Shown here piece after piece: positions 4,536 through 9,779 of a stretch of 9,779 nt of DNA. Both the position numbers and the translations under genes were made by a program. The notes beneath the pieces were generated by a model. That model saw nothing but the letters and a program-made list of their open reading frames with translations. It did not search any database and was not told the DNA's origin. Within the stretch, counting starts at the first letter, position 1. Every line of letters starts with the position of its first letter. The DNA comes from a virus (Duplodnaviria > Heunggongvirae > Uroviricota > Caudoviricetes): positions 1-9,779 of the IMG/VR virus record IMGVR_UViG_2703718811_000003; one strand, written 5' to 3'.

Positions 4536-4928
4536 ATGGCAAAGCTGGACTGGAAAAAGCTGGAGCAGGCATTCCGACGCGAACATGCCGAAACGGGAAT
4601 AACATTACTGGACTGGTGCCGGAAGAAAAAGATTAATTACAACACCGCCAGAACCCGTATAAAAATGGGCAAAATCGATCATGAAATTGATCATAAAACC
4701 GATCATGAAATCGATCATGACATCTCAGATGAAGAACCCAGCAATGACGCGTGTTCCGACGATGAAAAATGCGCAAAAAACTCTGAAAAAAACTGCGCAA
4801 ATTCGGCAGAAACGAAACGGATTCGTGGTTCCCGACTTTTACCTCCTTCAAACGCTTTTTCTCAGCGAAACACCCACGCCGTAAGACACCGTGGATACCG
4901 GAAGCCGCACATTGTTCCCACGTCTTGA
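4536..4928 (+). CDS. HTH-containing protein with acidic His/Asp repeat; possible remnant of a terminase small subunit-like packaging protein (uncertain)
   Basis: N-terminal ~45 aa (MAKLDWKKLEQAFRREHAETGITLLDWCRKKKINYNTARTRIK) resembles the HTH of phage small terminase / DNA-packaging proteins. It is followed by the (I/T)DH(E/K/D) x4 repeat. The C-terminal third is low-complexity and overlaps the next ORF, so the 3' end may not be genuine. Weak RBS. Confidence 0.45.
   Translation: MAKLDWKKLEQAFRREHAETGITLLDWCRKKKINYNTARTRIKMGKIDHEIDHKTDHEIDHDISDEEPSNDACSDDEKCAKNSEKNCANSAETKRIRGSRLLPPSNAFSQRNTHAVRHRGYRKPHIVPTS
4674..4721 (+). repeat. four tandem 12-bp units (atcgatcatgaa-like), each containing a GATC Dam site
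   Basis: Units at 4674-4685, 4686-4697, 4698-4709 and 4710-4721. GATC at 4677, 4689, 4701 and 4713. In frame the repeat encodes IDHE-IDHK-TDHE-IDHD. Confidence 0.9.
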
Positions 4929-5298
4929 GCCGGTGCATGTTGACAGTGCGATGGCCTGGCAACTGCTGGGGTTTCCGGATGTCTGGGTTCGTCATGAAGA
5001 GCTTGATGATGTTCTGAAAAAGCAACAACAGAATGAGCAGTTGCGGCAGGCACAGCAGGCGCAGGAAAGAGTGCTTGCTGCGCGGGCAGAAGCGGAGAAC
5101 AGTTTTGTTGTTTCTGTTAACGGGCAGGAGGTGGATTTAAGTAAGCTCACCTCAGCACGGCTGGCGACGCTGTGTGAGGCAGAAGAGCTGGATATTCACA
5201 AAGACCCGAAAGAAACGGCTGAGGCATTCCGTATCCGGGTGCGTGAGGCATTTTGCCGTCGTGTTGCGGAGACTGAACAGCATGGCGGAACTGAGTGA
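4891..5298 (+). CDS. hypothetical protein (start uncertain: GTG 4891, TTG 4912 or ATG 4951)
   Basis: ORF with Gln-rich helical middle and charged C-terminus; stop TGA 5296-5298 overlaps the start of the next gene. The same frame is open upstream back to about 4681, interrupted only by TAA at 4882-4884, so it may be a remnant of a longer gene. Confidence 0.45.
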   Translation: MDTGSRTLFPRLEPVHVDSAMAWQLLGFPDVWVRHEELDDVLKKQQQNEQLRQAQQAQERVLAARAEAENSFVVSVNGQEVDLSKLTSARLATLCEAEELDIHKDPKETAEAFRIRVREAFCRRVAETEQHGGTE

Positions 5299-6495: not shown

Positions 6496-8654
6496 GTGTT
6501 GTTGTTTCGGGGACGCTGAAATCTCCTGATGGTGAGGCGATATCAGGAGCAAATATTACCCTGACGGCGCTGACAGTTTCACCGGATGCGCTCAGCGGCA
6601 CCAGTGCGTCGGCAGTGACCCGTGAAGGTGGATATTACGGAATGACGATGGATCCGGGGGAGTATGCGGTTTCGGTGACGGTGAAAGGGAAGACTGCTGT
6701 CTACGGACGTGTGCGTATTGAGGGGACCGAAAGTACGGTGACGCTCAATATGCTGTTACGCCGCAGTCTTGTTGAGGTTAGCATACCCGGAGAACTGCTG
6801 ACAGATTTCCGGCAGATACAGAATAATGTGGCTGATGACCTTGCCAATATTCGTCGCCTGAATGAAGACACGGCGACAAAAAACACTCAGGCCACACAGT
6901 CAAAAGAAAGTGCAGCAGCCAGTGCGAAGAGTGCATCTGACAGTGCAAAGACGGCAACCAGCAGGGCGGCTGAAGCCGGACAAAAAGCGACTGATGCCAC
7001 TGAGGCTGCGACCCGTGCAGTCACAGCAGCGGGGAATGCAGAGGAAAGCTCGACCCGTGCCGGAGAGTCTGAAAAAGCCGCCGGAGCTGATGCAGAAAAA
7101 GCCAGACAGCATGCTGAAAAGGCCAGGCTGGCGCAGGAGAGCGCCGGAGAGATCCTTAAGCGGGCAGAGGCTGCCACTGTCAGTGCTGAAGAGGCCAGAC
7201 GTATGGCTGAGAATGCACGGGGGCCCCGGGGGCCTCAGGGAGAAACTGGTCCGAAGGGGGATGTCGGTCCTAAAGGCGAAACAGGTCCAGTGGGCCCTCA
7301 AGGGCCCGCAGGGCCGAAAGGTGAGCGTGGTGACGTTGGTGCTCAGGGGGCTGTAGGGCCCGCTGGTCCGCGTGGTGAGAAGGGCGAACAGGGGGAGCGA
7401 GGACCGCAGGGAATACCAGGCCTGAAGGGGGATACCGGAGAGCGGGGGCCTAAAGGGGACCAGGGGGATATGGGGCCAAAAGGCGAGAAAGGTGATCCGG
7501 GAGGTCCTGCAGGCCCGCAAGGTCCTAAAGGTGAACGAGGAGAAGCCGGACCACAGGGACCGATGGGAGCACGAGGTGAGCGTGGGGAGACTGGCCCCCG
7601 AGGTGAACCAGGTCCTGCAGGTCCGAGAGGCGAACGAGGAGAGACCGGACCTCAGGGACCTCGTGGAGAGCCAGGTCCGGCAGGCAGCGCTGCAAATGTG
7701 GCTGATGCGACGACGGCACAGAAGGGAATTGTGCAGTTAAGCAGCGCAACGGACAGTGATGATGAAGCGAAGGCAGCCACCCCGAAAGCGGTGAAAGCGG
7801 CAATGGATGTGGCAAATGAAGCGAAAACAAAGGCAGAAGAGGCTGCAGCAGGAGGTGGTGTTCCCGGTCCGAAAGGAGATAAAGGGGACTCGGGGCCAGC
7901 AGGTCCGGCTGGGCCGAGGGGCGTTCAGGGACCGAAAGGTGATCCCGGCCCCCAGGGACCAAAGGGGGATACTGGCGCTGCTGGGGCAAAGGGTGAGAAA
8001 GGAGCCACCGGCGCAACCGGGCCACAGGGACCTAAAGGGGATACGGGAGCCGCAGGCCCGGCAGGACCGCAGGGACCTAAAGGGGATACGGGAGCCGCAG
8101 GCCCGGCAGGACCGCAGGGACCTAAAGGGGATACGGGAGCTGCAGGCCCGGCAGGCGCACAGGGACCAAAAGGTGACAAAGGCGATCCGGGGGTGGCTGG
8201 ACCAGCAGGTCCGGCAGGTGCGCCGGGGCCGAAAGGCGATAAAGGTGATCCGGGAGTAGCAGGTCCAGCAGGTCCGGAAGGGCCGCAGGGACCGAAGGGA
8301 GACACTGGAGCCCCCGGGCAAGGAACAGAACTGCTTACTACTGCCAATACATGGACTCAGGCACAAACTTTTAATGGAGGTATTAATGGAAATTTGACGG
8401 TAAACGGAAACGGATCATTTAACGATGTTCAGATCCGCTCGGATAAACGCAACAAGCGAAATCTGGTAAAACTGGATAATGCGTTAGATCGTCTGGAGGC
8501 ACTTACTGGTTATCTTTACGAGATACAGTACTCTGCCGACGGTTGGCAAACGTCGGTTGGTTTAATTGCTCAGGATGCACAAAAAGCCTTGCCTGAACTG
8601 GTACCCGCAGTGGCGATATTTTTATCTCTTACGGCAAAAACAAAATGCGGGTGA
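6492..8654 (+). CDS. stf: side tail fiber protein (lambda Stf-like N-terminal domain, two collagen-like Gly-X-Y blocks, C-terminal S74-type intramolecular chaperone motif)
   Basis: GTG start with GGAGGTGGAG RBS. N-terminus ([23 protein letters not shown]…[11 protein letters not shown]) parallels lambda Stf (ISGVLKDGTGKPVQNCTIQL…GQYSVILQVDG). Conserved Stf motif [14 protein letters not shown]…[12 protein letters not shown] is present. Gly-X-Y runs at about 7221-7685 and 7860-8318. C-terminal SDKRNKRNL…[17 protein letters not shown]…[16 protein letters not shown] matches the Peptidase_S74 autocleaving chaperone signature. Confidence 0.9.
8025..8159 (+). repeat. three near-perfect tandem 45-bp repeats inside the second collagen-like block
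   Basis: Unit cagggacctaaaggggatacgggagccgcaggcccggcaggaccg at 8025-8069, 8070-8114 and 8115-8159 (third copy has minor variants). Each encodes [16 protein letters not shown] further imperfect ~50-bp duplication lies at about 8166-8275. Confidence 0.9.
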
Positions 8655-9779
8655 GAGGTGGCTTTAAGTCAGCCAGTGATGCGCGTAAGTACATTGATTC
8701 ACATCGTGATGAGCTTGTTCGTCATGTGAAGGAGATGCGAGAGATTTCGCGTGAGGAGCAGCGTAACGCCACCAACCGCGACCGTACCGGACCAGAACGC
8801 CGCAAGGGGAATGTTTCACCGGAGCAGTTCAGTGATGCGTTTGGTTTCCGTGGTGTGCAGTTTGGTAACTACGTGGAAGGTCCGCGTCGTCAGGCTGATT
8901 TGAACCGGGCTTATGACTCGCTGCATGACCTTGCGGAAGTACTGAATGTACCGACAAAAGCGCTTTCCCTGAACGGTCGTCTTGGCCTGGCATTTGGTGC
9001 CCGTGGTAAGGGTAAGGCGGCAGCACACTATGAGCCGGGTGAGGTGGCAATCAACCTGACAAAAGGTAACGGACCGGGTGCGCTGGCGCACGAATGGTTC
9101 CATTCTCTGGATAATTATTTTGGTCGTTATGACGTTTCCAATGACGGGAAAATTACGTCAGGTGGCGACTTTATGACGGAAGCACAGCGTGTCAGGCGCA
9201 TATTTAAAGACGGCAGGTATGTTGATGCTGAATATCCGGTACGTCAGGAGGTTTACGACGCTTTTAAAGGTGTGATTCAGGCCATTAAAAACAGTGACAT
9301 GCCGCGTCGTTCAGCGCTTCTCGATGAGGTGCGCTCAAAACCGTACTGGTCAACGGATGTTGAAATGGCGGCACGTGCCTTTGAGCGTTATGTTCAGGAT
9401 AAGGCGCGTATGGCTGGCGTGGAGAATGATTATCTGGTCAATATCCGTAAGGCACCTGAGCACAACACAGATAACACCTACGCTTATCCGACGAATGCGG
9501 AACTGGATGGCGGTATTCGTGAGGCATTCGATCACCTGTTCCGCACCCTGAAAACCCGTGAGACGGACAAGGGCGTTGCGTTTTATTCCCGTAAGGGCGT
9601 TACCCGCACACCTGAAGGTAATCTCATTTCGGATGTTAACCGTAGTGCGGAAGCCAAAGGCAGCCCGGTCCCGCAGGTTGAAGCGGTTGCCCGTGGCGTG
9701 ATGAGCGGCATTAAGGACAGTGACCTGAAGGTCCGTGTGGTGAAGTCACAGAAAGAGGCTGAAGCGCTGGCGGGTGAAT
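8645..9779 (+). CDS. HExxH-motif protein, putative Zn-metallopeptidase-like domain; N-terminal 378 aa of a longer protein that runs off the window, possibly a polyvalent-type phage protein
   Basis: Frame is open from 8597 to the window end. ATG 8645 overlaps the fiber stop by 10 nt. HEWFH at 9089-9103 in the context [20 protein letters not shown]. No stop before the window end. The family assignment is from memory of MPTase-type domains in large polyvalent proteins and is not verified. Confidence 0.7.

Follow-up and report, generated by a model that had tools for sequence, protein, structure and literature searches.

Gene content of the contig

The window analysed here is the whole 9,779-bp contig of an Escherichia coli draft assembly (GCA_001607685.1), with nothing visible beyond its two ends; a literature search for the assembly accession returned nothing. 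Its features are collected in Table 1. The contig begins inside nanS-p, downstream of the position of stx, and the nanS-p remnant is collinear with the esterase gene found downstream of stx2AB in the O157 prophage and in phage P13374. The late/lysis block that follows has the gene order of the O157:H7 Stx2a prophage, and the left arm as a whole is collinear with the intact O157 Stx2a prophage, where the order is stx2-nanS-lysis-bor-terS-terL-portal. Identity to the O157:H7 Stx2a prophage is 91% over 320-4897, and 91-96% to the references used. Since no reference comes closer than this, the exact parent phage is absent from the collections searched.

Table 1 Features of the 9,779-bp window
Feature	Position	Strand	Basis and remarks
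nanS-p, 3′ part (SASA-family esterase)	1..871	+	Pfam DUF6645; cut by contig start
Intact late/lysis block	1019..4480	+	Pfam labels of called genes
DUF1378, DUF826			Pfam; first genes in late/lysis block, ahead of holin
Holin	1584-1799		Pfam; lysis block
Lysozyme	1804-2337		Pfam; lysis block
Ant	2612-3181		Pfam; lysis block
Rz/Rz1	3338-3802 / 3558-3743		Pfam; lysis block
bor	3834-4127	-	Pfam
Small hypothetical	4277-4480		End of late/lysis block
Truncated small terminase gene terS	4536..4928	+	121 native codons, then 9 out-of-frame codons of ORF62 DNA and a stop
Deletion junction 1	4896..4897	strandless	blastn segments and parental sequences; clean breakpoint, 2-bp TA microhomology
5′-truncated ORF62 (phi24B vb_24B_33 homologue)	4891..5298	+	PHROG 482, positions 21-153 of 153
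Neck adaptor ORF63 (first dodecameric head-to-tail adaptor ring), intact	5282..5845	+	187/187 identical to phi24B gp64
Tail adaptor ORF64 (second dodecameric ring, lateral-fibre docking site), intact	5845..6495	+	Pfam PF24175 SU10_adaptor
Lateral collagen-like tail fibre (gp61/ORF65 type)	6492..8654	+	704 native and 16 foreign residues
Deletion junction 2	8602..8603	strandless	blastn and parental sequences; clean breakpoint, 2-bp TA microhomology
Internal fragment of large polyvalent protein gene (P13374 ORF78 / phi24B gp47)	8604..9779	+	Runs off contig end

As stated in a preliminary description of this DNA, which was made from the sequence alone, no terL, portal or capsid gene follows bor; none was found anywhere in the window in the ORF list or by Pfam and PHROG profile searches. 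A small-terminase remnant (4536-4896) had been overlooked in that description. It keeps 121 of 268 amino acids, with the native part running to 4898 and codon 121 spanning junction 1, and it matches positions 1-135 of the 284 in PHROG 370 (terminase small subunit). Its alignment to the phi24B small terminase Sterm (268 aa) diverges after the residues HRGY. An Rfam scan of the window gave no match, and a promoter and terminator consensus scan of 3800-9779 returned no more sites than shuffled sequence, so that it is uninformative on transcription units.

Genes retained between and after the junctions

The ORF62 fragment is identical to residues 28-162 of P13374 ORF62 at 132 of 135 positions. Its native codons start at 4897, the first 29 being absent, and its apparent GTG start is terS sequence read across junction 1, with no Shine-Dalgarno motif.

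The two proteins encoded between this fragment and the fibre had been described as matching nothing that could be named, and both can now be assigned. ORF64 is an SU10-type tail adaptor, which scored 113 bits against PF24175 (cut-off 27, E 3e-32, profile positions 1-187 of 194) and matched PDB chain 8jov_2 by sequence (E 4e-23); it is identical to phi24B gp62 at 212 of 216 residues. ORF63, the neck adaptor, matched PHROG 437 (virion structural protein) and had no Pfam match; membership of the PF24175 type was not found for it by sequence. Its AlphaFold2 model (pLDDT 85.8) had GP4 gp81 as best PDB match by Foldseek (8jov_G, E 6e-10, TM 0.73), followed by matches to 8jov_2, the SU10 tail structure 7z47, phicrAss001 virion structures and the T7 gp11 adaptor; the matched chains in 7z47 and the phicrAss001 structures we take to be adaptors. 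On the evidence of this model, ORF63 is predicted to have the podophage adaptor fold (T7 gp11-like). In agreement, cryo-EM of phi24B showed that gp64, to which ORF63 is identical, forms a dodecameric adaptor ring (bioRxiv 10.64898/2026.04.10.717836; gp64 coordinates were taken from its supplement). The functions given here for the retained proteins come from the cryo-EM and proteomics data of the same preprint as well as from Pfam, PDB and fold searches.

It had also been suggested that the two proteins are distant paralogues of each other. This holds at the level of the fold, both by Foldseek and in the phi24B cryo-EM preprint, but is not detectable by sequence: BLASTP gave an E value of 2.6, and hhalign a probability of 0.2% with a shallow profile (21 sequences, Neff 1.9).

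The collagen-repeat fibre and the HExxH motif of the preliminary description are both present. The fibre carries Pfam matches to CarboxypepD_reg, phage_tail_N, Collagen, Phage_fiber_2 and Peptidase_S74, the last of which ends at residue 704; compared with P13374 ORF65 it has lost its last 41 residues, the C-terminal region after the Peptidase_S74 match. The 720-aa fusion fibre was absent from the clustered protein collection searched. The ORF78 fragment, at which the motif lies (HEWFH, 9089-9103), is identical to P13374 ORF78 at 375 of 378 residues and aligns to positions 1136-1513 of the 2,793-position PHROG 616 profile. It belongs to the LPD families, with LPD1 at 87 bits and LPD5 at 73 bits (cut-offs 27), the LPD5 match covering only positions 82-144 of the 144 in the profile. 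It is not a full-length multi-domain protein with a native start: in the native 2,806-aa gene, ATG 8645 is codon 1149 and encodes an internal methionine, and it has no Shine-Dalgarno motif.

Two internal deletions in an Stx-type prophage

The three segments of the window are found in the same order and orientation in the intact Sepvirinae Stx phages P13374, P13803 and phi24B, at 95-99.9% identity. Against P13374, blastn gave three collinear segments at 95.4%, 98.7% and 99.1% identity, separated by gaps of 7.2 and 12.6 kb. The middle segment (4896-8603) matches P13803 in a single piece at 99.9% DNA identity, and the last segment matches VT2-Sakai at 99.4%.

Junction 1 joins terS codon 121 to ORF62 codon 30. 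Relative to P13374, about 7,234 bp (record 31871-39104) are lost, with the 3′ part of terS, terL, portal, ORF59, the major head gene, the cement gene ORF61 and codons 1-29 of ORF62; the scaffold gene lies in this interval. The deletion takes out every DNA-packaging and head gene. At junction 2 the fibre gene breaks off with its last 41 codons missing and runs on, out of frame, into the middle of the gene for the 2,806-aa polyvalent protein, a protein of ejection type. About 12,589 bp (record 42766-55354 of P13374) are lost here, comprising the 3′ end of the fibre gene, ORF66-ORF77, which include nozzle and needle homologues, lom and a hok-like gene, and roughly 1,134 codons from the start of ORF78; the nozzle, needle and accessory genes are gone with this deletion.

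We therefore consider, with a probability of about 0.93, that the window is a defective (cryptic) E. coli prophage of the Sepvirinae, of the short-tailed Stx type (phi24B/933W/P13374), which has undergone two internal deletions by illegitimate recombination. It has the nucleotide identity and the collinear late, lysis and morphogenesis gene order of that subfamily. Of the complete morphogenesis set (terL, portal, scaffold, major capsid, nozzle, needle) all members fall in the two deleted intervals, and as no such ORFs or domains are present in the window it is a remnant rather than a functional member.

The tight stop/start overlaps noted before can be understood on this basis. The overlaps exist (ATG 5282 before the stop at 5296-5298; GTG 6492 over TGA 6493-6495; ATG 8645 before TGA 8652-8654), except that the supposed ATGA at 5845 is TGATG, with the stop at 5843-5845 and the ATG at 5845-5847, so that the stop is not within the start. 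The ORF62/63, 63/64 and 64/65 overlaps are annotated likewise in P13374 and phi24B. The block left between the two scars is the native, translationally coupled block of truncated ORF62, neck adaptor, tail adaptor and lateral fibre, which explains the tightness of the overlaps. The proposal of a single co-translated unit of five consecutive genes stands for this ORF62-63-64-65 block, coupled likewise in intact phages, and not for the rest: the first and last genes are fragments, the fibre lacks its last 41 codons, and the fibre/HExxH-protein overlap (8645/8654), read as a native boundary, is a by-product of deletion 2 between genes that lie more than 9 kb apart in intact phages. The apparent start codons of the first and fifth genes are accidents of the junctions.

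The preliminary description had offered two readings of the locus. One, a prophage with heavy deletions in which a fibre cassette is all that is retained, was essentially correct, as the segments are collinear with individual intact Stx phages and both junctions interrupt ORFs. The other was a distinct fibre/effector module, gained by recombination beside a lysis cassette. Lambdoid phages are indeed mosaic, and the closest relatives of the left arm (91-96% to references) and of the middle segment (99.9% to P13803) differ. However, all three segments share their order and orientation with single intact phages, and four ORFs are broken at the junctions, so that their products are truncated or run out of frame. 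Lambdoid phages normally exchange modules at gene boundaries or homologous linkers, and neither flanking homology nor an integrase or IS was found at the junctions. We reject this reading, to which we leave hardly any weight. What was taken for a fibre operon is the remainder of an ordinary Stx-type prophage in decay and not a new module. The same description had set against its own proposal the finding of ordinary head-tail joining proteins together with intact head genes in standard order; the former were identified, but no intact head genes in such an order were seen.

Occurrence of the junctions in other assemblies

Three assemblies carry junction 1 without a single base difference, namely the window contig, GCA_020319715.1 and the Logan assembly SRR8097454, and an exact-protein look-up of its fusion ORF returned three contigs only. 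Junction 1 was spanned in none of 5,426 complete E. coli genomes, and its exact 26-mer was not found in IMG/VR. The sister contig GCA_020319715.1 shares junction 1 but has a different fibre deletion (ORF65 to ORF69, with CAA microhomology) and further deletions inside ORF78. The different further deletions in one carrier of junction 1 indicate stepwise decay. The exact-protein look-up of the junction 2 fusion ORF found the window contig only, so that the reality of this junction rests on one assembly; it was likewise spanned in 0/5,426 complete E. coli genomes, and its exact 26-mer was found neither in IMG/VR nor in GTDB representative genomes or JGI metagenomes.

These counts bear on whether a short-read assembler joined pieces of co-resident Stx-type prophages at one or both junctions while the real prophage is intact. 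The contig is short, STEC genomes typically carry several copies of the genes in which its two ends lie (nanS-p and the gene of the polyvalent protein), and junction 2 has no independent occurrence. Such a chimera is nevertheless very improbable. Junction 1 recurs identically in three assemblies, one of them the independently built Logan assembly, and the sister contig has the same kind of clean deletions elsewhere. Moreover, the parental sequences have only 2 bp in common at each junction, far below any assembler k-mer overlap and too short for a k-mer misjoin, so reads spanning the junctions must exist.

Proposed history of the element

In a decaying Stx-type prophage, the two deletions may have arisen by microhomology-mediated end joining or replication slippage. 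IS-mediated or site-specific deletion was considered and set aside, as no IS, integrase or long repeat is present at the breakpoints. Junction 1 would be the older of the two, and decay would then have gone on independently in different strains. The resulting element would be unable to build virions alone. Late transcription after induction would still cover the remnant genes, provided that Q and pR′ persist upstream.

A role for the scarred element was also weighed, in which it persists because it is useful: kept by selection, it would depend on a helper and, once a co-resident Stx phage is induced, would provide adaptor and fibre proteins, the N-terminally truncated polyvalent protein, or fibre DNA for recombination. 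Such a donor would alter the particles or the host range of the helper phage. In its favour, neither adaptor gene is damaged, the two show 98-100% identity to their counterparts in a functional phage, and the block lies downstream of the lysis genes in the orientation of the late transcript. On the other hand, the C-terminal end of the fibre is gone directly after the match to the Peptidase_S74 chaperone, and the sister lineage has deleted most of its fibre gene, which means that conservation of the fibre does not extend to all carriers of junction 1; a recent deletion would account just as well for the near-identity to live phages. We consider retention as a donor highly unlikely. The truncated polyvalent protein keeps its putative metallopeptidase motif.

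Comparison with known systems

The closest systems are Stx phages. With phi24B (vB_EcoP_24B; Sepvirinae, Traversvirus) the window shares the order lysis-bor-terS...ORF62-adaptors-fibre...large polyvalent protein, the two adaptors at the identities given above, a gp61-like fibre N-terminal part and collagen shaft, and homologous terS, ORF62 and polyvalent protein (gp47) sequences. It differs in having no terL, portal, scaffold, major capsid, cement, nozzle, needle or accessory genes and in the truncation of terS, ORF62, fibre and polyvalent protein genes. At its C-terminus the fibre follows the P13374 (Peptidase_S74) type rather than that of phi24B (545/610 identity). P13374 and P13803 (Sepvirinae, Oslovirus), which are Stx2a phages of the O104:H4 outbreak type, are 98.7-99.9% identical in DNA over 4896-8603 and 99% over 8602-9779, with all three window segments collinear. 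The window lacks 19.8 kb of the 60.9-kb P13374 genome between the segments, its lysis region is only about 83% identical, and in P13374 a Rha-like gene stands at the position of bor.

In EHEC, defective lambdoid prophages such as those of the Sp pool of O157:H7 Sakai have been inactivated by internal deletions and keep lysis and some structural genes; the pair of deletions in the window differs from these in being found in none of the 5,426 complete E. coli genomes. More distantly, the portal-tail complex of the Ralstonia podophage GP4 (PDB 8JOV) and the adaptor of phage SU10 (PDB 7Z47, PF24175) have two stacked 12-fold adaptors of a common fold, although sequence identity to the window adaptors is only 12-33%. 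Fibres of the phi24B type are unrelated to those of GP4 (bioRxiv 10.64898/2026.04.10.717836).

Implications

The arrangement is an ordinary deletion product of a Stx-type phage that is well known, and apart from getting the annotation right it is of little consequence. Gene callers give spurious ORFs at the scars, here proteins of 135 and 720 aa, and a contig of this kind may be mistaken for a novel module. The 2026 phi24B structure allows the two proteins encoded upstream of the fibre, which had no name, to be annotated as neck adaptor and tail adaptor. As for the prophage itself, this copy would be unable to make particles on its own.

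Collinearity with intact Stx phages

The window is the entire contig LOIL01000133.1 (9,779 bp) of the draft assembly GCA_001607685.1, its ends being the limits of readable sequence, and the protein accessions of its ORFs are labelled Escherichia coli. Direct blastn against part of the intact Stx phage P13374 (L001) returned three segments, all collinear and separated by two gaps. With megablast against phage genomes, the middle segment matched Stx phage P13803 in one ungapped piece at 99.9% identity, and P13374 and phi191 at 98.7–99.5%, and the last segment showed 99.4% identity to VT2-Sakai and many further Stx phages. 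Positions 10–4897 matched O157:H7 Stx2a prophages over their nanS-p-lysis-bor-terS part, and the order of an intact O157 prophage (stx2AB-nanS-p-DUF1378-DUF826-holin-lysozyme-Ant-Rz-bor-terS-terL-portal) is kept as far as codon 121 of terS. Every segment is 95–100% identical to characterised phages. The absence of genes for the large terminase subunit, portal and capsid, noted in the preliminary description, held in the ORF list and in domain and profile searches of the window; its interpretation is partly supported, the branch of a heavily deleted prophage being right.

Coordinates of segments and features in the window and in P13374
Feature	Window	P13374 (L001)
nanS-p, containing the contig start	1-871	
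terS, 5′ part	4243-4897	12123-12768
Small terminase remnant (ORF)	4536-4928	
terS tandem repeat, AAATCGATCATG	4672-4724	
terS tandem repeat, AAAACTGCGCAA	4765-4801	
Truncated ORF62	4891-5298	
Junction 1	4896/4897	
ORF62 3′ part, ORF63, ORF64 and ORF65	4896-8603	20001-23663
ORF63	5282-5845	
ORF64	5845-6495	
Tandem repeats in the second collagen block of the fibre	8025-8304	
Junction 2	8602/8603	
ORF78 (8.4 kb), interior	8602-9779	36251-37428

The arms of the window (1–4897 and 4896–9779) are strongly mosaic, with different best relatives. The lysis arm is ~83% identical to P13374 and ~91% overall to an O157 Stx2a prophage, the structural segments are 99–99.9% identical to P13803, P13374 and VT2-Sakai, and no single reference in the collections searched matched both arms. 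The product of the nanS-p gene in which the contig starts is, in phi24B, a processed capsid-decoration protein and esterase, gp84 (bioRxiv 10.64898/2026.04.10.717836); the remnant has no capsid gene left for such a product to decorate.

Two deletions and their products

On the P13374 map, ~7,234 bp are absent at the first gap, namely the 3′ part of terS, terL, the portal gene, ORF59, the major head protein gene, ORF61 and codons 1–29 of ORF62. The breakpoint (GTGGATA/CCGG) is clean, the parents having just a 2-bp TA in common, and an imperfect direct repeat flanks the deletion (left AAGACACC...TA, right AAGGACACC...TA). The terS remnant, overlooked in the preliminary description, keeps 121 of 268 residues followed by 9 foreign codons, and its ORF aligns with small terminase profiles over their N-terminal half (positions 1–135 of 284 in PHROG 370). 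It holds two 12-nt tandem repeats, one of 4.4 copies, with GATC in most units and coding for (I/T)DH(E/K) repeats, and one of 3.1 copies. Some phages carry a pac site within the small terminase gene, and by analogy these repeats could be a candidate terminase recognition (pac-like) or Dam-methylated element.

At the second gap ~12,589 bp are absent, covering the last 41 codons of the fibre gene ORF65, ORF66–77 and approximately the first 1,134 codons of ORF78, again with a clean breakpoint (CTGGTA/CCCG) and only a 2-bp TA common to the parents. The fibre, with an N-terminus and collagen shaft of the phi24B gp61 type and a P13374-type C-terminus bearing a Peptidase_S74 chaperone domain, keeps 704 native residues and gains 16 foreign ones; the Peptidase_S74 Pfam match ends at residue 704, where the junction cuts off the 41 residues beyond it. 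The fibres of phi24B and P13374 are 645 aa and 730 aa long, and that of the window would be expected to have had 745 aa before truncation, so the collagen shaft varies in length among relatives. The second collagen block of this fibre contains near-perfect tandem repeats of 45 nt and 63 nt. Of LPD5, the last ORF keeps the C-terminal third, along with HEWFH and LPD1; it aligns to positions 1136–1513 of 2,793 in the PHROG 616 profile.

Five translationally coupled genes, forming a fibre operon after the lysis module, had been proposed. The overlaps themselves exist (ATG 5282 comes 17 nt ahead of the stop codon 5296–5298, GTG 6492 overlaps TGA 6493–6495, and ATG 8645 precedes TGA 8652–8654), except that the sequence at 5845 is TGATG (stop 5843–5845, start 5845–5847) and not ATGA. 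However, the first of the five is ORF62 minus 29 N-terminal residues with a GTG start supplied by terS DNA, and ATG 8645 is the in-frame codon 1149 of ORF78; the deletions therefore created both of these "genes", the first and the fifth, as well as the 8645/8654 "coupling". Inspection of the upstream sequences revealed no Shine-Dalgarno motif ahead of the GTG and no ribosome-binding motif before ATG 8645. The observation as a whole is thus partly confirmed.

The two adaptors

The two proteins preceding the fibre, described as distant paralogs that could not be named, are the neck adaptor (ORF63) and the tail adaptor (ORF64), being identical to phi24B gp64 at 187/187 and to gp62 at 212/216 residues. 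ORF64 is an SU10-type adaptor (Pfam PF24175, 113 bits, E 3e-32) and matches 8jov_2 (E 4e-23), a "virion associated protein" present in 12 copies in the portal-tail complex of GP4. ORF63 had no match in the Pfam search; it falls into PHROG 437 ("virion structural protein") and showed a weak sequence match to GP4 gp81 (8jov_G, E 0.012). Paralogy between the two was not detectable by BLASTP (E 2.6) or by hhalign, in which a 21-member profile was compared with ORF64 (probability 0.2%). The AlphaFold2 model of ORF63 (pLDDT 85.8), on the other hand, had GP4 gp81 as its best match (E 6e-10, TM 0.73) and further matched 8jov_2, which is the GP4 homologue of ORF64, the T7 gp11 adaptor, and chains in the structures of the SU10 tail and the phicrAss001 virion that were taken to be adaptors.

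In the phi24B virion, gp64 and gp62 form two dodecameric adaptor rings, at neck and tail, with nearly identical folds at 18% sequence identity; six gp61 trimers, the lateral fibres, dock on gp62, the nozzle is gp57 and the needle gp56, and the 2,811-aa virion protein gp47, with LPD5, LPD1, LPD38 and a metallopeptidase domain, is proposed by the authors to be an ejection protein (bioRxiv 10.64898/2026.04.10.717836). The genome coordinates of gp64, gp62 and gp47 in the supplement of that preprint agree with the phi24B annotation. The suspected paralogy was thus correct, by the model matches and the common fold in cryo-EM. A 194-aa ORF63 homologue, 86% identical to the neck adaptor, has a precomputed Pfam SU10_adaptor match that ORF63 of the window lacks, a possible hint of the paralogy at the sequence level.

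The junctions and a sister contig

Two other assemblies have junction 1 in base-for-base identical form, GCA_020319715.1 (contig ABCZAI010000075.1) and a Logan assembly of SRR8097454 that was built independently; junction 2 was seen, among the collections searched, in this contig only. Neither was present among 5,426 complete E. coli genomes, which indicates a rare lineage. That the junctions are assembly artefacts is very improbable, with junction 1 recurring in two further assemblies and a 2-bp overlap too short to make a k-mer assembler misjoin, so that spanning reads must exist. Both deletions would have arisen by microhomology-mediated illegitimate recombination, through end joining or replication slippage. 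The TA is used at both junctions with similar products, TGGATACCGG and TGGTACCCG (compared at window 4880–4900 and 8595–8610 and L001 12750–12768, 19985–20002, 23655–23663 and 36243–36252); together with the direct repeat around deletion 1, it may be chance or a hint of a shared mechanism.

The sister contig, ABCZAI010000075.1 (remnant features at 3345–11688 of our extract L006), shares junction 1, but its second deletion is another one, running from ORF65 (window-equivalent 6957) into ORF69 (L001 26726) with a 3-bp CAA microhomology; the ORF downstream matches the last 259 residues of P13374 ORF69 at 100% identity. Furthermore, ORF73–77 are replaced by a 397-aa YadA-head/anchor (Eib-like) gene, and two more deletions, of ~0.3 and ~1.3 kb, lie inside ORF78, the polyvalent protein gene. 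We infer that this pattern fits a prophage inactivated first by junction 1, with differing losses afterwards in different descendants.

Fate of the remnant

We regard the window as a dead prophage copy. It lacks any packaging or head gene and the distal tail, four of its genes are truncated, and it would be incapable of forming particles alone. The late transcript of Stx phages is Q-dependent, and the remnant follows the lysis genes in the orientation of that transcript. Should Q and pR′ survive upstream, induction would therefore still lead to its transcription, and coupled translation of both adaptors and the truncated fibre would be possible through the native 62/63/64/65 overlaps. Lacking the last part of its C-terminal region, that fibre may mature improperly. 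That the remnant is kept by selection because it donates adaptor or fibre functions in a helper-dependent way seems most unlikely, given that the fibre is truncated and that the sister lineage lost most of the fibre gene. As a dead copy, the remnant joins the defective deleted lambdoid prophages that are commonplace in EHEC; only this particular pair of deletions is new, and it has no evident functional meaning.
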